Source of the DNA: a virus
Virus record (IMG/VR): IMGVR_UViG_3300045988_114759
Strand: one strand, 5' to 3'
DNA: 64,000 nucleotides
The position numbers and the translations under genes were made by a program. Below are positions 2,753 to 38,447 of the stretch, piece by piece. The notes beneath the pieces were generated by a model. The model was not told the DNA's origin. It saw only the letters and a list, made by a program, of their open reading frames with translations, and did no database searches. Within the stretch, counting starts at the first letter, position 1, and every line of letters begins with the position of its first letter.

Positions 2753-5236
2753 ATGGCTATAAGTTACGACAAAAAAATCATGGAGTGCGTTCTTCGTTCA
2801 GTTATGTCCGAAGGTAATGTCGCACAAGGAAAGGCTATTAAGTCTATTTGTAAGTCACCAAAACCGCTGTTTATAACCGGTAAAGGAGGAAGTGGAAAAG
2901 CACAGCCTTTGTATGCTAAAATTTTAACGCCAGATGGTTTTAAGAATATGGGGGATATAAAGGTTGGTGATAAAGTTATGGGCGCAGATGGTAAACAACA
3001 GACTGTATTGGGTGTGTATCCACAGGGAATTAGACCTGTATATAAGGTAACTATGAATGATGGTTATTTTACATATTGCGATGAAGAGCATTTGTGGTCA
3101 TATAGATTATCCAGTCATTATGGTAAAACTCCATTTTCGAGATGCAGTACACTAAAAGAAATTATAAGTACAGGTATCAGGAAGAATGTTAAAATAAAAA
3201 ATGGTGAAAAACAGCCGTTAAGATATGAAATTCCAGTGTGCCGACCTATAGAATATGAAGAAAAGAAATTTTCTATACATCCGTATGTATTGGGAGTTTT
3301 TATAGGTGATGGGAGTTTAAATGGTAATATGGCTATTTTTTCTTGTTCTGATTCTGATGTAGAAATAAGAAATAGAGTAGAGTCATTTCTTGGAGAAGAT
3401 TTTCTATTGAGTAAAAAAAAGGAACATCCAGCCATCACATGTCCTCAATACAGTGTGATTCAAAAAAATCATACAAAAGGTGGTGGGTTTATAAATAGGA
3501 TAAAGGATTTAGGACTAAATGTTACGTCTGGGTATAAATTTATACCAGAAGAATATAAACTTGGCAGTATCGATCAGAGAATGCATTTGTTAAATGGTTT
3601 AATGGACACCGATGGAACATGCTCGAAAGAAAGAAATAGATTGACGTATTCTACTACAAGCAAGAGATTGGCTGAAGACATTGTTGATCTTGTACAGTCG
3701 TTAGGTGGAATAGCTAAGATAAATACGCTTTTTAGACCTGATAAGAAATACGTGTATGAATATACCGTAAGAATAAAAATGTACGATAATGCATTTACAT
3801 TAAAAAGAAAAAAAGAAAGATATGTTCCTAATCCGGCAAGAGTTTCAAGGTATATAGAAAGCGTGGAAAAGGTAGATGATTCTGAATGCGTATGTATAAA
3901 AGTATCAAATAAAGACGAGTTGTATATAACAGATAATTATATTGTAACTCATAATACTACTTTCCTTAAGCGTATTATACCGGCATTAAAAAATGCGGTT
4001 GTTGTAGCTCCTACAGGTGTTGCTGCTGTTAATGCAGGTGGTCAAACCATTCATTCATTTTTTAGAATAGGAATGCAGCCGTATATACCTGAAATACGAA
4101 AAGGCGCGTTTATGGATAATTGCGAATATAAATTCAACGGAGGTTCGGAAAAGATTTTACAGAATATAAAGTATCTTATCATAGACGAGATTTCTATGGT
4201 TCGCCCTGATCTTCTTGACAACGTAGCTGATATACTTCGTCATGCAAGAGGAGACAAGGACCCGTTTGGCGGCGTGAAACTTATTATGGTAGGTGATTTA
4301 TTTCAACTTCCGCCAGTAATTAAGGAGGATTTTTTTAGAGAAATATACGATACATCTTACTTCTTTAGCTCCAAGTCTCTAATGGCTTCTGGTATGGAAA
4401 TGGTTTCTTTTGAAAAAATATACCGTCAGAAAGATGAGAAGTTTATTAGTGTCCTTAATAAGGTGCGTGAAGGGCAGATGGATGATGATGTATTTGATAC
4501 AATAAACAGCAGATGTATTCAGTCTGATAATAATCAAGGATATGTTGAGATTGTAACTACCAACTCAAAAGCTACGGCTATTAACGAAATGAGAATATCA
4601 TCGTTACCAGGCTCTTTAAGAAAATTAGAAGCTGTTATAAACGGTGATTATCCTAAAGATGCTCCGGTTGAAAAAACTCTTTTCTTGAAAGAAGGATCAA
4701 GAGTTATGATAACAAGAAACGGAGGAGAGTACTTCAATGGCTCTCTTGGTACTGTATTGTCTATAAAAAGGGGGGAGATTGAAGTAGTCCTTGATAAACC
4801 GAAAGATGATGAGCATACTAAGGTTGTTATAACACCATGTTCGTTTGAGAAAGTAAAATACGTAAGAAACGGATATAAGATAGAATCTGAAGTAGTAGGA
4901 GCTATTATTCAGTATCCTATAAAAATAGGTTATTCTATCACGATTCATAAAGCCCAAGGCCTGACATTGGATGCGGCTATGATGGACGTATCTAATTCTT
5001 TTGAAACAGGACAGCTATATACGGCTCTTTCAAGAGTAAAGTCTCTTGATGGATTATATCTTCGTCAACCTATTCCTAAGACGGTAAAAACCAGCGATCA
5101 GGTGGTGATAAACTTCTATAAAAGGACTCTTGGTAATGGAGGTATTGTGAAACCGGTTCCAATGGAAGAGCTTGAAAAGTCAATGATTAATTTGTCAACC
5201 GGATCTGAAATAGATTTTGCAGAGTTTAATTTATAA
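2753..5236 (+). CDS. Pif1/RecD/Dda-like SF1 DNA helicase precursor, interrupted by an intein
   Basis: The Walker A motif GKGGSGK|T is split by a 352-aa insertion. After the insertion come the motifs APTGVAAVNAGGQTIHSFF, LIIDEISMV (Walker B), MVGDLFQLPPV and SITIHKAQGLTLD, which are typical of Pif1/RecD (AAA_30 + UvrD_C_2). The spliced product would be about 475 aa. Confidence 0.8.
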   Translation: MAISYDKKIMECVLRSVMSEGNVAQGKAIKSICKSPKPLFITGKGGSGKAQPLYAKILTPDGFKNMGDIKVGDKVMGADGKQQTVLGVYPQGIRPVYKVTMNDGYFTYCDEEHLWSYRLSSHYGKTPFSRCSTLKEIISTGIRKNVKIKNGEKQPLRYEIPVCRPIEYEEKKFSIHPYVLGVFIGDGSLNGNMAIFSCSDSDVEIRNRVESFLGEDFLLSKKKEHPAITCPQYSVIQKNHTKGGGFINRIKDLGLNVTSGYKFIPEEYKLGSIDQRMHLLNGLMDTDGTCSKERNRLTYSTTSKRLAEDIVDLVQSLGGIAKINTLFRPDKKYVYEYTVRIKMYDNAFTLKRKKERYVPNPARVSRYIESVEKVDDSECVCIKVSNKDELYITDNYIVTHNTTFLKRIIPALKNAVVVAPTGVAAVNAGGQTIHSFFRIGMQPYIPEIRKGAFMDNCEYKFNGGSEKILQNIKYLIIDEISMVRPDLLDNVADILRHARGDKDPFGGVKLIMVGDLFQLPPVIKEDFFREIYDTSYFFSSKSLMASGMEMVSFEKIYRQKDEKFISVLNKVREGQMDDDVFDTINSRCIQSDNNQGYVEIVTTNSKATAINEMRISSLPGSLRKLEAVINGDYPKDAPVEKTLFLKEGSRVMITRNGGEYFNGSLGTVLSIKRGEIEVVLDKPKDDEHTKVVITPCSFEKVKYVRNGYKIESEVVGAIIQYPIKIGYSITIHKAQGLTLDAAMMDVSNSFETGQLYTALSRVKSLDGLYLRQPIPKTVKTSDQVVINFYKRTLGNGGIVKPVPMEELEKSMINLSTGSEIDFAEFNL
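2900..3955 (+). mobile_element. intein carrying a LAGLIDADG homing endonuclease, inserted in the helicase P-loop
   Basis: The insertion starts with Ala right after GKGGSGK and ends with ...IVTHN, followed by Thr (+1). Removing it restores the GSGKT Walker A motif. It contains two LAGLIDADG blocks (LGVFIGDGSL and LLNGLMDTDGTC). A Hint-like N-terminal region reads KILTPDGFKNMGDIKVGDKV. Confidence 0.75.
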
Positions 5237-17360: not shown

Positions 17361-17682
17361 AGATCTTGATTTAGAATATGTATTGTCCAAAGAACATACA
17401 AGTGAAGGAATAGTTATTTTAAATAATGGCTATATATATATCCTTGAAAATCCATATGGTGTTGGTCTTAATATAAAAATCACTTTAAAAGATTTTTATA
17501 AGATTGAAACCGATGATGGAAAAAATGCAACCGTAGATGATGTGCTGAATATAAGGATTGATAAAGATCGGAATTTCAATTCATATAGTGATGTTGTAAA
17601 GATAGAGGTATTAGAAGACGGTAGTATCAAATATATAAGTTTGTATCATGAAAGTAAAGAAAGCAGCGATAGTTTATCATAA
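17269..17682 (+). CDS. hypothetical protein (start uncertain)
   Basis: ORF in another frame overlapping the 3' end of the HAD gene. There is no internal Met after residue 17, and a TTG start near 17353 is possible. Confidence 0.3.
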   Translation: MVCQVSSLIRIRYVLIMLVLTIWIITTFLDKDLDLEYVLSKEHTSEGIVILNNGYIYILENPYGVGLNIKITLKDFYKIETDDGKNATVDDVLNIRIDKDRNFNSYSDVVKIEVLEDGSIKYISLYHESKESSDSLS

Positions 17683-18607
17683 ATCGGATTTAGATGGCGT
17701 TGTATCGGCAGCCATCGCAACCATGTACGAAAACAGTAAAGACAGGGATGTTATTTATATCCCGTATTCGTATGAAGATGATGTTAAGAAAGTTACCAGC
17801 AAGGTGAGTGACTTAGATGTTGTTTACGTTCTTGACGTGTCTTTTGGAGCCGATTCTAAAACGGTTTTCAAGAAGTGGCTTGATGAAGGAAAGAGCCTGA
17901 TGTGGATAGATCATCATAAGGGGATTATCGAAGATAGTAAGACATGGGGGTTCGTAGTTCCAGGGTTGAGGAGAGTCGGTACCGGTGCGTGCGCACTTGC
18001 TGCCGACCTGCTGATGGGGAAGGTGCCGGCGATCGTCCGGTGTCTGTCAGACTACGATGTGTGGAATAAAGAATCCGGTTTAGGCTGGGATACGGTAGTA
18101 GCTGTCCAGTATGCCTTGAGATCAAAAATTCGATTGAATGTGTTAATAGCATTGTCGTACTTGTATGATCACTTTAAAGAAAATATGAAAGACAATGAAA
18201 TTGATCTTATTTTTTATGATCTTGCTAAAGAAGGACGTGCTATAATTAACTACATGGCTGGTAAAAACGAAGATGAGGTAAGTAGGTGTTCGTTCGAAGC
18301 GCACGTCGATGAGGTGAAGGTTGTAGCGATGAATACCGCTGAATCAGGTTCTAAGGTATTTGATTCTCTTACACCGGACTGGTTAGACGGTAGAAAAATT
18401 AAAGCTTTGATGCCATTCTGTATCATGCCAGGTGGAAAAGTTAGGTTCTCTCTTTACAAATGCGTAGAAGACGGCGTAGATTGCTGTGAGGTAAGTAAGA
18501 GATTCGGTGGTGGAGGACATGCCGGTGCTGCTGGATTCGTTATAGACGTATCAAGCGACCAATTTAAGGACTTCCTTGAAAACCACAAACTTACTTCAAT
18601 TCAATAA
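17648..18607 (+). CDS. DHH-DHHA1 phosphoesterase (NrnA-like nanoRNase / pAp phosphatase family)
   Basis: N-terminal YHKSDLDGVVSAA (DHH motif I). MWIDHHKG (DHH motif). C-terminal GGGGHAGAAGF (the GGGH signature of DHHA1). Confidence 0.8.
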   Translation: MKVKKAAIVYHKSDLDGVVSAAIATMYENSKDRDVIYIPYSYEDDVKKVTSKVSDLDVVYVLDVSFGADSKTVFKKWLDEGKSLMWIDHHKGIIEDSKTWGFVVPGLRRVGTGACALAADLLMGKVPAIVRCLSDYDVWNKESGLGWDTVVAVQYALRSKIRLNVLIALSYLYDHFKENMKDNEIDLIFYDLAKEGRAIINYMAGKNEDEVSRCSFEAHVDEVKVVAMNTAESGSKVFDSLTPDWLDGRKIKALMPFCIMPGGKVRFSLYKCVEDGVDCCEVSKRFGGGGHAGAAGFVIDVSSDQFKDFLENHKLTSIQ

Positions 18608-18617
18608 ATTAATAAGG

Positions 18618-18662
18618 TCGTGTTTTAAATAGGATTGGTTTCTATCAATCCTATTTTTTTTT
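18618..18662 (+). terminator. intrinsic terminator after the DHH gene
   Basis: The 9-bp stem aataggatt/aatcctatt is followed by T9. Confidence 0.6.
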
Positions 18663-18679
18663 GTGTTGCGTGGAGAGGC

Positions 18680-19045
18680 GGGTGTGATGATGATAAAATG
18701 AGAAATAGGTTTGTGCGATGGGAGAGAAAGACAGAAATAGGTTTGTGTGATGTGGGAGAAAGACAGAAATAGGTTTGTGTGATGTGGGAGAAAGACAGAA
18801 ATGGGTTTGTGTGATGGGAGAGAAAGACAGAAATGGGTTTGTGTGATGGGAGAGAGGGGCAGAAATAGGTTTGTGTGATGGGAGAGAGAAAGACAGAAAT
18901 AGGTTTGTGTGATGGGAGAGAGGGGGTGTGATGATGATAAAATGAGAAATAGGTTTGTGCGATGGGAGAAAGACAGAAATAGGTTTGTGTGATGGGGGAG
19001 AGGGGGGGGGGAAATAGGTTTGTGTGATGTGGGAGAGGGGGTACC
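18680..19045. repeat. tandem direct repeat array (~10 imperfect copies of a ~32-35-bp unit GAAATAGGTTTGTGTGATGGGAGAGAAAGACA); iteron-like
   Basis: Counted directly in the sequence. Copies vary by gtg/gcg and by gggagag length. The array lies in a ~900-bp non-coding region followed by AT-rich palindromes. Confidence 0.85.
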
Positions 19046-19519
19046 TATCACGAACCTCCCGCCCCCGAAACGCGTTTTCTACCCCACACCCCCCTTCGCT
19101 TGAAAACCGGAAACGCGTTTTTACCTCAAACCTACAAACTCTCTGATTATCAATCATTTATTTAAATTATTGATAATCAATGTGTTATTATAACATATTG
19201 ATTATAAGCCACTTAAATAAGCATATATCCCACATATTAATGTACGCGTGTAATACCGCTCCTGTATGTTTTTTATAACTTGCTGATAATCAGATAATAT
19301 AATCGAAATTAATACAAATTAACAAAAAAAAGATAGCATATATATTTGTAATATTGATAAATGTCGTATATTTGCGTCGTGATCGAGAGAGATCGCAAGT
19401 TAACATGATGAGCCTATATAGTGTACCCGTTGGGCTAACTATATATGTATCTGTTAATCGCCTGCGTTGTGGGCTATTGAATTGAATATCACTTGTTTAA
19501 CAAATAAATACATAATGTT

Positions 19520-20047
19520 ATGATTACGAAAAAAAACATTAACAAGCTACAGAACGCTGTTATCAAAGAAAATGCTGCAAATTTGGTTGGTGCCGTAAAG
19601 TTATACAACGCTTTATTTGCAAATGGAGCTGATCTCAAGGCTATTTGCAAGGCCTTGGAAATACCAGCCGAATATGCTGTAAAGGTTGCATCTCTCGCTA
19701 AAGATAAAAAACGTCTGGTAGCCGTGTGTAGCCAAATGTTACCAAAGGTTGGCGATACCTTCGTAAAATTTACCTTGTATTCTAAAATATACAAAGATAG
19801 TAAGGTTAACAAGGAAAAAGGTATCGAGAATAAAGAGGTGAAAAATATCGCCTACGGTGAAGAGTATAAGCCTTTTGGGTTTGCTTCTCCCGAACCTTTG
19901 GAAGGTAAGAACAGCGCAAAGTGGCTCACTCGTGAAACCGACGAGTATAGAGCTACTTATGTAGCGACACGAATCGCTTCTTACTCAATCCGTACCATCG
20001 CAAAGTGTGTAAGTGAATACCTCGCACATGAAAGCAACCAGCAGTAA
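19520..20047 (+). CDS. hypothetical protein
   Basis: 175-aa ORF after the repeat/AT-rich region. Confidence 0.45.
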   Translation: MITKKNINKLQNAVIKENAANLVGAVKLYNALFANGADLKAICKALEIPAEYAVKVASLAKDKKRLVAVCSQMLPKVGDTFVKFTLYSKIYKDSKVNKEKGIENKEVKNIAYGEEYKPFGFASPEPLEGKNSAKWLTRETDEYRATYVATRIASYSIRTIAKCVSEYLAHESNQQ

Positions 20048-20544
20048 CAAGGCACGGAGAGCGCCGTTAAGCTCTCCAAAGGTTTGACGCGTACCGTTAA
20101 ACGTGTCTGTACGCCGTTGTCAGTGGGTGCACGTCCCGCGTATGCTTTAGACTGAAGCTGACAAAATAGAGAGTTATTTTACATATTGGAGATAGATATA
20201 CCATTGCCCTTGCCGTTGGCAATTAAAGGGCCGGTATTACTGCATGGACTATCCGAATAGGTATGGTTTATGTTAGGTATGTGAGTATAGTTTAGAAAAT
20301 ATACCGTTGTACGAGGTTTGTCTCCGTTCGGGAACGTGTCTTACTTGCCTACACGTAAAATAGGACAAGGCTGTAGATTAAATTACAGGGTATGAGCATG
20401 TAACCTATCATGTAGGAGCATCTTATATCAAAACGCAAGGACACAATCGCCTTTATTTGTGGCTAAATTGTGTAGCAGACGGAAAATATAATAACAACAT
20501 AGTACGGGCCTGTACGCAAGAACTACGTACTAATTACGGGCTGT

Positions 20545-20608
20545 TGGTTGTAGCATAAAATCTCTATAGGATAGGAATGCGTGTCCGGTTCGATTCCGGA
20601 GCAACCTC
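20545..20608 (+). other. tRNA-3'-half-like element (T-arm tccgg-TTCGATT-ccgga plus acceptor-like stem tggttgt/gcaacct), too short to be a full tRNA
   Basis: Only 32 nt separate the acceptor 5' strand and the T-stem, where about 41 are needed. The element lies immediately upstream of the small ORF at 20632. Confidence 0.4.
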
Positions 20609-20631
20609 TAAATTATAAACAATATAATAAC

Positions 20632-20838
20632 ATGGAAAGGAAATTTAAATCTTATATGGTAGACGTCCGCGGTCTGTCCAGGAAAGAAGCTAAAGAAAAG
20701 CGGAAAAGAGCGTATCGTGAATTTATGTTGTATCGTGATCTTAAAGAAGCGTATCATGCCGATACCGGAAAAGAAAAGTGCAAGCGTAAAGTTCATACGT
20801 CAAGAACGTACGTTAAGGAAAATATAAACAGTATTTAA
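20632..20838 (+). CDS. small basic protein (68 aa)
   Basis: The ATG at 20632 is preferred over the GTG-initiated extension listed from 20581, because that extension reads through the tRNA-like element. Confidence 0.4.
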   Translation: MERKFKSYMVDVRGLSRKEAKEKRKRAYREFMLYRDLKEAYHADTGKEKCKRKVHTSRTYVKENINSI

Positions 20839-20842
20839 ATAG

Positions 20843-20885
20843 GAATAGGGTTGTTTCGAATATCGGAGCAGCCCTATTTTTGTAT
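20843..20885 (+). terminator. putative intrinsic terminator
   Basis: Stem atagggttg/cagccctat followed by TTTTTG. Confidence 0.4.
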
Positions 20886-21204
20886 CCTACTCTTTCTATT
20901 TACGGGTAGGATATTCTGAGAGTGAACACGACGACAAACAAGGTAGGAATGCGTATATTGGTTCAAATCGAAACAAAAATAAGGCTGTTTGGATATAATT
21001 CCGGTATTTTGTCTATATCATGTCGTTAAAATTGGTCTAAAACGAAACTTTAGGCGGTTTTCTGACCCAAAATAGGGCGTCAGATGCCGCCTTTTTCGTC
21101 TCTATGGATTGAAAATTAGGCTTATTGTATTTTTCTTAAAAATGAGGTATGCTTGATTATCAATTAGTTAGATTTTATAATCCCCGTATTTTCGGGCATA
21201 CTTA

Positions 21205-21390
21205 TTGTATTTTTTTTATTTTATGTGGTGGTTTTTATTAGTGGCTGACTTGTATTTTCTGTCGGTTGGTATTCGTTCTATGTTAGAGTACGGGCCGGAT
21301 CAGTATAATATCGTAATGGTCTTTTGCTTTTCTTTATTGGCTTTGATTATAGGCTTAAATATCTATCTTGATAGGAGGAGCAGACGGTAG
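21205..21390 (+). CDS. small membrane protein (2 predicted TM helices)
   Basis: 61 aa with two hydrophobic stretches (FMWWFLLVADLYFLSVGI and VMVFCFSLLALIIGLNIYL). Confidence 0.3.
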   Translation: MYFFYFMWWFLLVADLYFLSVGIRSMLEYGPDQYNIVMVFCFSLLALIIGLNIYLDRRSRR

Positions 21391-21576
21391 GGCGTGTGCT
21401 GAAGACTCTCTATTCTCTCTATGGAATGATATTATCTCCAAACACCCCACACTTCATGCCAGAGTATAAGCTTGTAGCGCTCTTCGTATGCCGGTAGTGA
21501 GGCGGTAGGGCGCAGGTTCTATGCGGAAAGATAGAGGATTAGACGGGGTGGGATTGGGGGAGAGGGAGGGCACTCT

Positions 21577-21850
21577 CCTCCAACAAAATTCAATAGATCA
21601 GAGCTTTAAAACAGCCAACAAAACTCAATAGATCAGAGCTTTAAAACAGCATTTTGTGGTTTCTTCCAACAAAATTCAATAGATCAGAGCTTTAAAACAG
21701 CCAACAAAATTCAATAGATCAACGTTTTAAAACAGCATTTTGTAGTTTCTTCCAACAAAATTCAACAGATCAACGTTTTAAAACAGCATAATGTAGGATT
21801 TTCCAACAAAATTAAGACTTACAGCGTTTTTAAAACAGTATTCTGTAGGT
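21577..21850. repeat. second tandem repeat array (~7 copies of ~35-bp unit CCAACAAAATTCAATAGATCAGAGCTTTAAAACAG, alternating with CATTTTGTGGTTTCTT spacers)
   Basis: Counted directly in the sequence. Preceded by the G-rich tract gggtgggattgggggagagggaggg at 21545-21570. Confidence 0.85.
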
Positions 21851-21920
21851 AAGAGTTAAGGACTGCATTATGTGAGTATTTTTTTTAATCGGAATGTATA
21901 ACAATTAAAACATAAACAAC

Positions 21921-22181
21921 ATGAACGTATATGACTTTGCGCCTGACTTAGATTTGAGTAAGGAGGGAGAAGGTTCTATTTTTGGAGTGAAAGGAATAGA
22001 AGGTAGTGATGGTATAGTATATGCTAAGGTAGTTAGCTGTGCAGAAGTTAAGGATTACAGTTGTGATAGGTGTATTTTTTATGATTGTTATAAGGATAAA
22101 TGTTTGTTATCGCGTAGTAATAGTTGTATAGATGGAGACTGGTGTTGTAGGTACGAACAGGCTGCCATAGAGGGGGAGTAG
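21921..22181 (+). CDS. small cysteine-rich protein (10 Cys in 86 aa)
   Basis: C...C..C....C....C......C....CC pattern. Possibly metal-binding. Confidence 0.4.
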   Translation: MNVYDFAPDLDLSKEGEGSIFGVKGIEGSDGIVYAKVVSCAEVKDYSCDRCIFYDCYKDKCLLSRSNSCIDGDWCCRYEQAAIEGE

Positions 22182-22213
22182 GCGGCGCCTTGGGCTAAGG
22201 CCTGCGGTTGTAG

Positions 22214-22537
22214 GTGGAACGTAGGTCGGAGCAGAGCCAGGACAGTTTATTGTGGAACGTAAAAAGAAAAAAGATGGAAAGGACAATACATTATATTTGG
22301 ATAAATTGGGTATCTTCTACAGGTTCGGAAAGTAGTAGGCTAATAAGCAACAGGTCTATGCCGGTATCAGATGCCAAAGAGATGATATTAAGAACGAGTG
22401 CTAAAGAATTGCTTAAATACAGACCGAGTTGGTTAAAGGACTGTGTTCGTATTAGTGTAAGTGCACAGGATATTACGACCGGAGAGATCCTGTATAGAAG
22501 AACTATAAACATAAAGAAGAAGGAGATAGCGATATGA
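22214..22537 (+). CDS. hypothetical protein
   Basis: 107-aa ORF. Confidence 0.4.
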   Translation: MERRSEQSQDSLLWNVKRKKMERTIHYIWINWVSSTGSESSRLISNRSMPVSDAKEMILRTSAKELLKYRPSWLKDCVRISVSAQDITTGEILYRRTINIKKKEIAI

Positions 22538-35908: not shown

Positions 35909-36131
35909 TGTTGTTTCCCGTGTAGCACTTGCGACGGCAATTGTATTATTGGTAGTAGCGGGTGCTACTTTGTTGATAGTGATTAAGACCGAAGAAGTAC
36001 CGAGATGGTTAATGAACTTACCATATACGTTGTCTTTAACGGCGGTATCTTTTTCAATTATATCACTTGTATCGAAATATAAAGAGTGGAAAAGAAATTG
36101 TACGTCTGCGAAAGATGCGGACGAAAAGTGA
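35901..36131 (+). CDS. small membrane protein (2 TM helices)
   Basis: 76 aa with hydrophobic stretches VALATAIVLLVVAGATLLIVI and LSLTAVSFSIISLV. Confidence 0.35.
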   Translation: MSDVVSRVALATAIVLLVVAGATLLIVIKTEEVPRWLMNLPYTLSLTAVSFSIISLVSKYKEWKRNCTSAKDADEK

Positions 36132-36598
36132 TGATAAGAAGTCATGGCTTATGCCAGGCTTGCAGGAGCAAAGAGTTGACTCCGAAGAAAAAAGACAGAA
36201 TTACATCCATTAAAAACAACAGCAAGAAGAAAAAGTTAGAGAGCCCGGATTTATCCGGGTTTTTTCGTCTTATGCTGGAGGAGTTGAATAGTATTCGAAT
36301 GTCTATGACCGGTAAGGCTATTCATTTTCCTACAGTATGTAACGTATGTCACATACTTCCAAAAAGGATATATAAGTCGGTTGCCACTTGCAGAGATAAT
36401 ATAGTTTTTCTACATGAATCGGAGCATACGGTATTCGACATGTATCTTGACAGGATGGAATTTGATAAACTTGAAACAGAATTTCCTTTTGTGTGGAAGT
36501 ATGCGGTAAAGAAGGTACTGGATATGGAAAACAGGGGAATGATTAAAGAAAGAGGTAGGTTGATTATTGAAATAATTGACAGGTATAACCCCAAATAG
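36086..36598 (+). CDS. zinc-ribbon protein
   Basis: 170 aa. The N-terminus reads CERCGRK...HGLCQACRS (CxxC...CxxC). Later Cys/His residues follow. Confidence 0.4.
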   Translation: MEKKLYVCERCGRKVMIRSHGLCQACRSKELTPKKKDRITSIKNNSKKKKLESPDLSGFFRLMLEELNSIRMSMTGKAIHFPTVCNVCHILPKRIYKSVATCRDNIVFLHESEHTVFDMYLDRMEFDKLETEFPFVWKYAVKKVLDMENRGMIKERGRLIIEIIDRYNPK

Positions 36599-36945
36599 TA
36601 TTAAACCAATATAATTCTATTATAAAAGTTTAATACATCTCTTTCAGAGATCGGGTTATTAGCCTAAGTGTTGAAACAAACACTACGTTATTTGAGAATA
36701 TATAGTTACCTACGGATGTTTGCCCAAGTCTGTAGCTCTAAGGATGGTGATTAAACAGGAGTAGTGTATTTGACGAAACAGTGTTGCCATTATATAAAAC
36801 CTCTTATAACATTGGCGATGGGTACTAACAGGATGAAATATTCCTGACTTATCCCTAACGGGATTTACATCTACCAAGGAGACCGAAAGGTCTCCGAGGG
36901 GATGTATTAAAACAGATGAGTAGTTTTAAATATATTTAATAGAAT

Positions 36946-37131
36946 ATGGGATATGAGAAAAAAAAATATAAGGTTACGATAGAAGCTGACGATGAAGTTA
37001 TTTTCATTGCCAACATAAAAAGAGGAGATAGTGAGAGATTGATTGATTTTGAGAGAGCGGCCGCAGATATTGATGAGGCTGTAACTGTGTTGTATTATGT
37101 TAAAGAGGAATTAATTGAGAAATTGAGATGA
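36946..37131 (+). CDS. hypothetical small protein
   Basis: 61 aa. Confidence 0.3.
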   Translation: MGYEKKKYKVTIEADDEVIFIANIKRGDSERLIDFERAAADIDEAVTVLYYVKEELIEKLR

Positions 37132-38447
37132 TAGAAGAAAAGATTAAAATATTAACAGATTTAGGGTTTGTCCCTATGGTGGAAGGAGTAGAAAATACGT
37201 TGTTTAGAATGAACGATGTTGTGATGTCGGTGTCAGATCCTAACCAAACACCAGAGCAGTTGAAGAAGGAGGTTATGTCTTTAATAAAGAACAGAGACAT
37301 AGCGGAAAGAGGTGGACAGGTTCCAGTAGTTGAAGAGCCGTCGCCTGAGCCAGAGCAGGCCCAGAAGGAGGAACCGGTAGCTCCGGCAGAGGAAGCTGCT
37401 CCTAATCCTGGAGAAGAAGATTCGAATCCGTTTACAGAAAATCAGGAAACGTTAGAGCCGTTTTATATCTGCGATGAGTTAAAGAAGATCGAGACTCCCA
37501 AATTCGTAAGATTGACATTAGACGGTAATCGTTTTTATGTAAGAAAGATGGACGATGGGACAGCCAAGATATACGCCTCGGTAACAACCATGATTAGAGA
37601 CGGATTCGTAGATGACAAGACGGCTCTTCAAGAATGGAGACAGGAGATGAGGATGATTGGTCGCAATCCGGAAGAAGTATCAGAATATGATGCAGATAAA
37701 GGAACGATCATGCACTACTTATACGGATTGTACCTAACAGGTAGAGATATGGTCTTAAATCGAAGTTTTATAGTTAAGACCGTACAAGAAGGTAAGCTGA
37801 AGATATCGAAAAAGAATCTTGACAAATTCTTTGGTAGCATAGATGATCTTGACGATATGATTGTCAGAGTTATGAAGTTTGCTAAGTTTTGTTCGGAGTA
37901 TAAGGTTAAGCCGATGATGATTGAAAGGATATTATCATTAGAAGATTATTTGGTAGCTACGCCGATAGATGCGATGGTTAAAATGACATTCAAATACAAA
38001 GAAGAAGGTTATTTTGGAGCCGTGTATCAAAGGGCTACGGGGCAGTTCAAAAAAGGAGATCCGAAGAAGGAAGTGAGAGAAGTGGAGAAAGAAGAGATTG
38101 TTATCTTAGATTTTAAATCAGGTGACATACGAAATGAACATGCTTTTCAATTGGAGGCTGAAAGGAGAATGGTTAAAAACTGGTACGGAATTGATGCACG
38201 TATTATGAATTTTTCTCCAAAAAGCACGAACAGTAAAGGTTATACGCTAAAAGAATGGTCTGATAAAAATGCTGCTATGGAGAAAGCGGACTGTGTGTTC
38301 CAACAAGGGATGTTGAATCATATCAGAAAAGATAAGAGGTTCAAAGTGAGAAAAGGAGTGCTGAATATCAATAAGCCATACAATGAAGAGGATCATATTG
38401 TTGTATATGATATTGCTGAGGAAATGTCTAAAAGATTCGTAATCTAA
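37128..38447 (+). CDS. putative PD-(D/E)XK-family nuclease with N-terminal P/E-rich linker
   Basis: 439 aa. Residues ~60-110 form a Pro/Glu/Ala low-complexity linker. The C-terminal segment EIVILDFKSGD shows a D...(D/E)xK-like arrangement. Family assignment is tentative. Confidence 0.35.
   Translation: MIEEKIKILTDLGFVPMVEGVENTLFRMNDVVMSVSDPNQTPEQLKKEVMSLIKNRDIAERGGQVPVVEEPSPEPEQAQKEEPVAPAEEAAPNPGEEDSNPFTENQETLEPFYICDELKKIETPKFVRLTLDGNRFYVRKMDDGTAKIYASVTTMIRDGFVDDKTALQEWRQEMRMIGRNPEEVSEYDADKGTIMHYLYGLYLTGRDMVLNRSFIVKTVQEGKLKISKKNLDKFFGSIDDLDDMIVRVMKFAKFCSEYKVKPMMIERILSLEDYLVATPIDAMVKMTFKYKEEGYFGAVYQRATGQFKKGDPKKEVREVEKEEIVILDFKSGDIRNEHAFQLEAERRMVKNWYGIDARIMNFSPKSTNSKGYTLKEWSDKNAAMEKADCVFQQGMLNHIRKDKRFKVRKGVLNINKPYNEEDHIVVYDIAEEMSKRFVI

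Follow-up and report, generated by a model that had tools for sequence, protein, structure and literature searches.

The DNA analyzed here, referred to as the window, is a stretch of 64,000 nucleotides from IMG/VR virus record IMGVR_UViG_3300045988_114759, which belongs to an epsilon-type crAss-like phage. Among deposited phages, csAssE-Sib (OR575929.1; 151 kb; human gut) alone matches the region of interest, with 79-85% identity and the same gene order. csAssE-Sib is an epsilon-type crAss-like phage described in a publication whose text mentions neither the repeats discussed below nor any origin (PMC11054128). The subject of this report is a tandem-repeat array, designated array 1, together with the DNA that follows it, in a noncoding gap of 912 bp (positions 18608 to 19519) that extends from the stop of the open reading frame (ORF) at 17648 to 18607 to the ATG at 19520. 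From its sequence features, the stretch from 18.66 to 19.38 kb is best described as a putative cis-acting DNA control region that heads the right-hand unit of early and replication genes. A preliminary description, made from the sequence of the window, had proposed a candidate origin of replication with the classic architecture of iterons and a DNA-unwinding element. That description is partly supported, by the anatomy, the noncoding nature, the uniqueness, and the selection on the locus, and the origin is a candidate function.

Array 1 (18703 to 19040, plus strand) consists of ten head-to-tail units of 30-35 bp with the consensus GAAATAGGTTTGTGTGATGGGAGAGAAAGACA, each comprised of a 19-nt core and a variable, purine-rich spacer. 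This agrees with the about 10 imperfect direct copies of a 32-35-bp unit, in a noncoding gap of about 900 bp, that had been recognized previously. Tandem Repeats Finder, the check suggested at that time, reports the array at 18701 to 18921 (period 32, 6.8 copies, 91% matches, score 354), with a further call at 18933 to 18994. With up to 3 mismatches allowed, the core GTTTRTGTGATGRGAGAG has 10 matches, all on the plus strand (at 18709, 18741, 18773, 18805, 18837, 18869, 18903, 18953, 18983, and 19018) and none elsewhere in the 64 kb. Only 0.27 matches would be expected by chance, and none of 100 shuffled sequences reached 10. The core-to-core spacing is 32 bp for five consecutive steps and then 34, 50, 30, and 35 bp. 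A variant half-unit of 23 nt, GGGTGTGATGATGATAAAATGA, is present on the plus strand at 18680 to 18702 and again at 18925 to 18947, inside the 50-nt step, and this pair shows a higher-order duplication. The top strand of array 1 is about 42% G and 2.5% C. After the GGTACC sequence at 19040 to 19045 the bias flips, with 37% C and 12% G across the next 120 bp. The GGTACC palindrome at this flip point and the CCTATCACGAA that comes after it (19040 to 19054) are invariant in related phages.

Two overlapping ORFs of 151 and 168 amino acids are open across the array on the minus strand (18596 to 19051 and 18651 to 19157, respectively). If these were genuine genes, then the array would be the coding repeat of a real minus-strand protein, an explanation that can be given almost no credence. 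Only 43% of unit periods are divisible by 3; the other 57% are not. The longest stop-free stretch on the minus strand has a median length of 86 amino acids among 89 relatives, in which the 168 amino acids of the window are the maximum, and a Pfam search with the minus-strand ORFs yielded no match. The ORFs are open because the units in the window have no TTA, CTA, or TCA on the top strand, and are by-products of its paucity of C. They had previously been set aside as repeat artifacts, with the proviso that repeats coding for a real protein conserved in relatives would speak against an origin. No such protein was seen; the ORF is broken in most relatives.

Several other candidate identities for the array were considered and rejected. 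The 32-bp units give 10 codons per ATG, with a stop that overlaps the next start (TGATG), as might be found in a chain of coupled mini-ORFs. This is a coincidence that is lost in relatives with other unit lengths or with an in-frame TGA. TAGGTTTG agrees with the Bacteroides -7 box and suggested promoters inside the units, but in most relatives its place is taken by GTTTAT. In CRISPR arrays, unique spacers separate identical repeats; here the units abut, and only the purine-rich tail of about 11 nt varies. Neither a CRISPR nor a tRNA was found at the locus, and Rfam 15 gave no covariance-model match at an E value of ≤1 within 18500 to 22300.

Array 1 in related phages

Related contigs were gathered with protein and DNA-pattern scans of IMG/VR, which yielded more than 100 relatives, many of them 140-155 kb in length. 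In essentially all of those that span the locus, the position and orientation of array 1 are constant. The preliminary description had called for a comparison of the repeat unit among related phages, and this revealed a conserved core within an otherwise variable array. The 19-nt core GTTTATGTGATGGGAGAGA is conserved across 144 distinct units, and the next 11 nt or so are variable and purine rich. The periods of 63 distinct arrays are clustered between 27 and 33 bp, or about three turns of the helix. All arrays terminate with ...GGGAGAGAGGGGGTACC, and the orientation, the end point, and the avoidance of C are fixed in all genomes. In the 151 kb of csAssE-Sib the unit core occurs at this locus only.

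Copy number, in contrast, ranges from about 2 to 19, with periods of 22-33 bp and super-units of 50, 60, and 91 bp, and relatives with nearly identical flanks have arrays that differ by whole super-units. These copy counts are lower bounds because short-read assemblies can collapse such arrays, and collapse also inflates the apparent variation in copy number. Contig ends are frequent in the repeats; 29 of 80 related contigs, recruited via the neighboring protein, end within array 1 (13 contigs) or within array 2 (16 contigs), a second array described below. Many contigs with the gene downstream of array 1 (ORF175) in Logan and the European Nucleotide Archive have a length of about 2.7-2.8 kb, equal to the interval between the two arrays. 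Both arrays break short-read assemblies and are therefore a source of fragmented or falsely "complete" genomes in this phage group. The arrays are variable-number repeats and, as such, possible strain markers.

The DNA to the left of array 1 is mosaic. One type (L001, L010, L035, and L070) has an extra gene for a protein of about 130 amino acids with its own terminator, and another relative (L054) has a different gene upstream of the array. In one relative (L060) there is no array, and a 40-nt left flank, found nowhere else, is joined directly to CCTATCACGAA.

Conserved DNA between array 1 and the first early gene

A duplicated GAAACGCGTTTT palindrome had been noted directly after the array. 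Both copies are real, and the second is at 19110 to 19121 as reported, but the first is at 19067 to 19078, 3 nt from where it had been placed, so that the second follows it by 43 bp. The palindrome occurs only at these two sites in the window, and the AAACGCGTTT palindrome occurs only at these two sites in the 151 kb of csAssE-Sib. The copies are within a G+C-rich, C-strand-biased conserved block (19037 to 19140) in which a poly-C/AT-core/poly-C layout is visible. Read on the minus strand (TTCGTGATAGG), the CCTATCACGAA at the start of the block resembles one inverted, degenerate unit core, as judged by eye and post hoc.

Conservation was evaluated as mean pairwise column identity over 71 distinct loci that were recruited only via the neighboring protein, which avoids the bias of a DNA anchor. 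Identity was 0.938 for the G+C-rich block (19037 to 19140), 0.892 for the palindrome region that follows it (19141 to 19230), and 0.914 for 19231 to 19344. Thus, the approximately 300 bp after the array are conserved at 0.89-0.94, which is comparable to the first and second codon positions of ORF175 (0.903 and 0.965, respectively; third position, 0.655). The block has no three-base periodicity, and there are single-base insertions and deletions among the relatives, which rule out a small plus-strand ORF at 19024 to 19146. The block does not fold better than shuffled sequence (z-scores of -0.5 for the plus strand and +0.5 for the minus strand), ruling out a structured RNA or DNA within it. An attP site or prophage junction was also rejected, as two conserved patterns from the block were absent from a set of 185,579 genomes of bacterial and archaeal species. 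The insertions and deletions, the lack of periodicity, and the lack of a fold signal indicate that the constraint acts on double-stranded DNA. Judging from these comparisons, the noncoding DNA after the array is under strong purifying selection.

The DNA beyond the block had been described as very AT rich, with an inverted repeat that has 10-bp arms, and both features are present. The arms, TGATTATCAA and TTGATAATCA, are at 19144 to 19153 and 19171 to 19180 and can be extended to 24 nt (83%; 19137 to 19160 and 19163 to 19186). A second imperfect palindrome (19158 to 19188 and 19190 to 19220) overlaps the first. Together the two palindromes (19137 to 19220) contain three TTGATWATCAA-like sites (at 19143, 19170, and 19198) about 27 bp apart, a period that Tandem Repeats Finder also reports, and their single-strand fold has a z-score of -3.7. 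The region from 19159 to 19358 has a G+C content of 23%, and only one other 200-bp segment of the 64 kb is less stable. There is a fourth TTGATWATCAA-like site at 19282 to 19292 and another at 21153. In csAssE-Sib, exact TTGATWATCAA sites are found at 126752 and 132335, each just 5' of a gene start in the early and replication block, and also near array 2. The total of 4 exact sites in that genome compares with about 0.3 expected, which is our estimate from base composition. Because it recurs upstream of other early genes and abuts a host-type promoter, TTGATWATCAA looks at least as much like an operator as like an unwinding element.

The transcriptional boundaries of the region could be predicted on both sides. 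The DHH-phosphoesterase gene to the left has an intrinsic terminator (18627 to 18664, plus strand), with a perfect 11-bp stem (18627 to 18656) and then a T-run, that abuts the left edge of the array. In relatives with another left flank (L001, L010, and L035), this position is occupied by another hairpin with its own T-run. To the right, a Bacteroides-type promoter, TTTG-N18-TATATTTG (19345 to 19374, plus strand), perfectly matches the consensus, and its -7 box is invariant in the relatives. On the basis of this match it is a predicted promoter for the downstream gene. Array 1 is probably not transcribed, because a terminator is found at its left edge with both types of left flank and the only promoter points away from it.

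Transcripts from the predicted promoter would begin with a structured 5' leader (19377 to 19519, plus strand). Its hairpins are at 19378 to 19397, at 19426 to 19434 (CCCGTTGGG), and at approximately 19460 to 19478, the last with the conserved loop TGCGTTGT. Compensatory changes were found at 9 of the 16 predicted pairs, and the loops are conserved (GAGAGA/AAGCGA, CCCGTTGGG, and TGCGTTGT). The leader had no Rfam match and is a candidate cis-regulatory RNA. The gene that it precedes, ORF175 (19520 to 20047, plus strand), is the first gene of the right-hand unit and is conserved with the codon-position pattern of a protein-coding gene. Neither ORF175 nor the neighboring ORFs had a match in Pfam, PHROG, NCBIfam, or PDB, and the AlphaFold model of ORF175 was poor (predicted local distance difference test score, 52).

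A second array

A further array, array 2 (21579 to 21849, plus strand), is located about 2.5 kb downstream of array 1 and directly upstream of the next gene cluster. Its 35/51-bp unit (35/51/86 bp; CCAACAAAATTCAATAGATCAGAGCTTTAAAACAG) is unrelated to that of array 1. It is hypervariable in the relatives, with periods of 17-51 bp. A (GGGAGAG)n block that is also variable and a hairpin (21554 to 21583; z = -2.3) come before it, in 21530 to 21583. The region from 18.6 to 21.9 kb is a sparsely coding island in which the two arrays bracket ORF175 and about 1.5 kb of further noncoding DNA. The stretch from 20050 to 21200 within it has low coding capacity and contains the tRNA T-arm-like sequence GTCCGGTTCGATTCCGGA near 20583 and the similar GGTTCAAATCGAAAC near 20960. 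ARAGORN detected no tRNA and Rfam no match in this stretch, which may be a noncoding RNA like the early intergenic RNAs of phage phi14:2.

Possible role as a replication origin

The feature is real, noncoding, specific to this phage genus, and under selection. The locus as a whole is a selected, probably untranscribed element that functions at the level of DNA. The interpretation that we rank first, although tentatively and with less than even confidence, is that the control region acts as the replication origin of the phage. Array 1 would then be a row of at least 10 binding sites in the same orientation, with 19-nt cores phased at about 30 bp, for one sequence-specific protein encoded by the phage. 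Proteins would also occupy the two copies of GAAACGCGTTTT within the G+C-rich block next to the array, and the joint loading of these sites would open the AT-rich palindromes nearby. Transcription that starts at the adjoining host-type promoter would assist this opening. That proteins bind here, that the DNA opens, and that the locus takes part in replication at all are what we infer.

Iterons are typically recognized as three or more repeats in the same orientation with a core of about 17-22 bp and helical phasing, and the ten units, the 19-nt core, and the periods of 27-33 bp conform to this. The locus is also within the replication half of the genome, with helicase, clamp, and SSB genes upstream and primase, DnaB, and exonuclease genes downstream. 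The terminator on its left would shield it from read-through transcription. The agreement with an unwinding element is less complete. The low-stability DNA at 19159 to 19358 has the appropriate composition, but it is 100 bp away from the array, contains the operator-like palindromes, and includes the upstream region of the promoter.

Other findings weigh against an origin. No initiator-like gene was recognized in Pfam, PHROG, NCBIfam, or PDB among the neighboring ORFs, including ORF175. The missing database match is compatible with a novel initiator, and ORF175 is still a candidate for that function. There is no 9-mer resembling the DnaA box TTATCCACA, with up to 1 mismatch allowed, in 18608 to 19519. 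However, DnaA boxes are not obligatory for phage origins. Near-identical genomes differ about tenfold in the copy number of the array, and such variation is unusual for iterons. The TTGATWATCAA sites, with their resemblance to operators, are also found just upstream of other early-region gene starts in csAssE-Sib. Given array 2, tandem arrays are a feature of the noncoding island in general, and the case for array 1 as the sole special iteron set is weakened because the unrelated array 2 is equally hypervariable. The literature searched contained no experiment on the origin of any crAss-like phage.

GC skew was evaluated because a skew minimum elsewhere had been proposed as evidence against an origin at the array. 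In the complete csAssE-Sib genome the cumulative skew is lowest at 17716 and highest at 110658. Both positions are gene-strand switches, and the array is elsewhere, at about 2.1 kb. In the window, skew is positive throughout 1-54 kb, with no switch at 19 kb. These results are formally contrary to an origin at the array but are uninformative because GC skew tracks the coding strand throughout the crAss-like phages (10.1101/2021.06.01.446427). In csAssE-Sib the magnitude of the skew changes across the locus, with the larger values on the early-gene side. This step was not considered a replication signal because there is no matching step in the structural block.

Two side observations were also made in the window. 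The divergent gene-strand switch (about 700 to 880, with limits of about 613 and 882; approximately 270 bp), which corresponds to the skew minimum of csAssE-Sib, has a second match to the Bacteroides promoter consensus at 723 to 752 and would be the other conventional origin candidate by skew alone. In the window as a whole, 9-mers within 1 mismatch of TTATCCACA are enriched (40, compared with 22.2 ± 4.3 expected; none of 100 shuffles reached 40). These are mostly on the minus strand, dispersed, and unclustered.

Alternative explanations

The same anatomy could be the signal that the terminase recognizes or cuts in the phage DNA. The G+C-rich block and its two palindromes would be a pac site or would mark the edge of a direct terminal repeat, and the arrays would be accessory repeats. 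DNA entry into the cell would then start with the early genes just to the right. This is a serious alternative, but on balance it seems doubtful. The block and palindromes are unique in the 151-kb genome and highly conserved, the poly-C/AT-core/poly-C layout would suit such a signal, and the arrays bracket a segment of about 2.5 kb at the start of the early region. Cultured crAss-like phages provide examples of both types of ends, with short direct terminal repeats in crAss001 and pac-type headful packaging in crAss002 (PMC8042965). The crAss001 record was rejected as a guide to termini, as it is circular and was opened arbitrarily. The contig ends within array 1 and array 2 could be viewed as genome termini, but they are scattered, 27-222 nt from the block, as expected when assemblies break in tandem repeats. 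Many contigs of about 150 kb hold the locus internally and none holds it twice. Furthermore, pac and cos sites are usually in or next to the small-terminase gene, although T7-type ends are not, and the putative terS and terL genes are at 20.1-23.2 kb in the csAssE-Sib record, about 18 kb from the site at about 2 kb. A variation on this theme, for which the chances appear slim, is that the arrays bound a segment of about 2.5 kb that is first to enter the cell or is terminally redundant, and that the C-free units and the GGTACC switch are a new combined signal for packaging, entry, and the start of replication, in which the G-rich strands might form R-loops or quadruplexes. Array 2 keeps open the possibility that the arrays are the boundaries of a functional segment. 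Such a signal, if it exists, would be distinct from a classical iteron origin.

It is equally doubtful, but deserving of the same consideration as a terminase site, that the locus has a purely transcriptional function, with the palindromes as operators of the early promoter and the array as an upstream platform of curved DNA or multiple binding sites. The perfect Bacteroides promoter, the leader with its covarying hairpins, and the three or four TTGATWATCAA sites, phased at about 27 bp within 230 bp of the promoter, are what would be expected. The excess of exact TTGATWATCAA sites upstream of other early genes and the antirepressor-type proteins encoded by csAssE-Sib are also consistent with operators. 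However, the array is about 340-680 bp upstream of the start site, far beyond the usual range of bacterial promoter control. The array core and GAAACGCGTTTT are found at no other promoter in the genome, and conservation peaks in the G+C-rich block, which is distal to the promoter. Regulation of this kind would account for the promoter-proximal palindromes better than for the array.

The variability of the arrays raises the possibility that array 1 has no function and is a neutral, slippage-prone minisatellite, shaped by unequal recombination, slippage, and concerted evolution, beside a functional block and promoter. The changes in copy number, period, and super-units despite near-identical flanks, and the similar behavior of array 2 with its unrelated sequence, are as expected for such a minisatellite. 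Nevertheless, neutrality is unlikely, because essentially all relatives that span the locus have the array, the 19-nt core is kept across unit types while the spacer drifts, and the orientation, end point, and avoidance of C do not vary.

Two other functions are very improbable. One is a plasmid-type centromere, in which a partition adaptor binds the direct repeats during an episomal carrier state. At least 10 direct repeats whose function tolerates changes in copy number would be suitable for this, and the prototypic crAssphage, Carjivirus communis, has been proposed to live as a phage-plasmid (PMC10983915). However, no ParA, ParM, or TubZ-type match was found in a nonexhaustive scan of about 35 ORFs of the window or in the csAssE-Sib annotation, and there was no similarity to any plasmid in PLSDB. 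The other, which merits just as little confidence, is an element that acts as RNA or as an R-loop, with the G-rich, C-free strand as a noncoding RNA, or as an R-loop or G-quadruplex that primes replication. The extreme strand asymmetry, which includes the variable spacers, would fit, and the long intergenic regions of phi14:2 give rise to abundant early noncoding RNAs (10.1101/2020.03.07.982082). These intergenic regions are without comparable arrays, however, and at the locus studied here a terminator is directly upstream of the array, no conserved promoter faces it, the TAGGTTTG box is absent in most relatives, and the Rfam search detected nothing.

Genomic setting

Genes were mapped with Pfam and PHROG scans and with the csAssE-Sib annotation, and all those mapped are on the plus strand of the window. 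To the left of the gap are genes for a helicase with an intein, thymidylate synthase, a sliding clamp, dUTPase, three tRNAs, and the DHH phosphoesterase, which ends at 18607. To the right are about 18 kb of small genes without known function, followed by genes for primase, a DnaB-type helicase, a nuclease, and an SNF2-type helicase. There is a convergent strand switch near 54 kb. Similarity searches yielded no plasmid match in PLSDB and, among deposited phages, csAssE-Sib alone.

The helicase gene with the intein (2753 to 5236, plus strand) encodes a PIF1/RecD-type protein, and the intein contains Hint and LAGLIDADG homing-endonuclease domains. The homologous gene of csAssE-Sib is much shorter (1428 nt). 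At 36585 to 36829 (plus strand) there is a match to the HEARO RNA, an IscB-associated, omega-type RNA (94.8 bits, compared with the Rfam gathering score of 83). The ORFs that flank it (36086 to 36598 and 37128 to 38447) had no match to an HNH, RuvC, or IscB family. csAssE-Sib encodes TnpB-type proteins elsewhere in its genome.

Implications

crAss-like phages are the most abundant phages of the human gut. To our knowledge, there is no cultured member of the epsilon group, one genus-level cluster of which has been reported in more than 20% of samples from a Dutch cohort. The literature searched contained no description of the element reported here, and no replication origin or packaging site of a crAss-like phage that had been mapped experimentally. 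A cis-acting element that is unique in the genome, conserved in the genus, and resolved into mapped sub-sites provides a target for studies of origins, protein binding, and genome termini and for the development of phagemid and shuttle tools for Bacteroides.

Comparison with known systems

Each of the functions considered above has counterparts among known systems. In phage phi14:2, too, the early region starts with a single small gene between two long intergenic regions (10.1101/2020.03.07.982082). However, those regions are without comparable tandem arrays, and in the window a terminator precedes the array. The analogy was dropped for lack of arrays in phi14:2. The sopC region of F (12 direct repeats of 43 bp) and parC of R1 are, like array 1, long head-to-tail arrays for protein binding whose function tolerates differences in copy number. 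They differ from the locus described here in that no gene for a partition ATPase or adaptor was found among the ORFs scanned and there is no similarity to plasmids. The repeat arrays that flank the T7 terminal repeat and, in herpesviruses, the DR arrays with the pac1 signal of the 'a' sequence are also variable arrays beside a short, unique, conserved signal. They share the poly-C/AT-core/poly-C character of the block, and these viruses are of the same realm and package their DNA with a terminase. In the phage described here, in contrast, the terminase genes are about 18 kb away and the contig ends in the arrays are scattered.

The origins of lactococcal and streptococcal phages are intergenic, are located at a module boundary, and combine direct repeats, palindromes, and AT-rich DNA, as does the locus in the window. 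They differ in that they were demonstrated with plasmid-borne interference and replication assays, in their much shorter arrays, and in having no sequence similarity to the locus. Another analogy to the proposed origin is with ori-lambda and the theta-type plasmid origins, such as P1 oriR, R6K, and pSC101. Compared with the iterons of these replicons, the units of array 1 are spaced at about 30 bp, three helical turns, rather than about 20-22 bp, the copy number is hypervariable (about 2-19), and the top strand is almost free of C. In addition, no initiator gene was recognized, no DnaA boxes were found, and 100 bp of G+C-rich DNA lie between the array and the AT-rich stretch. In common with these origins, the locus has repeats in the same orientation with a core of about 19 bp, helical phasing, and adjacent AT-rich DNA that should melt easily. 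As in lambda and the theta plasmids, it is a genome-unique site, within the region of the replication genes, that adjoins a promoter predicted to be active.

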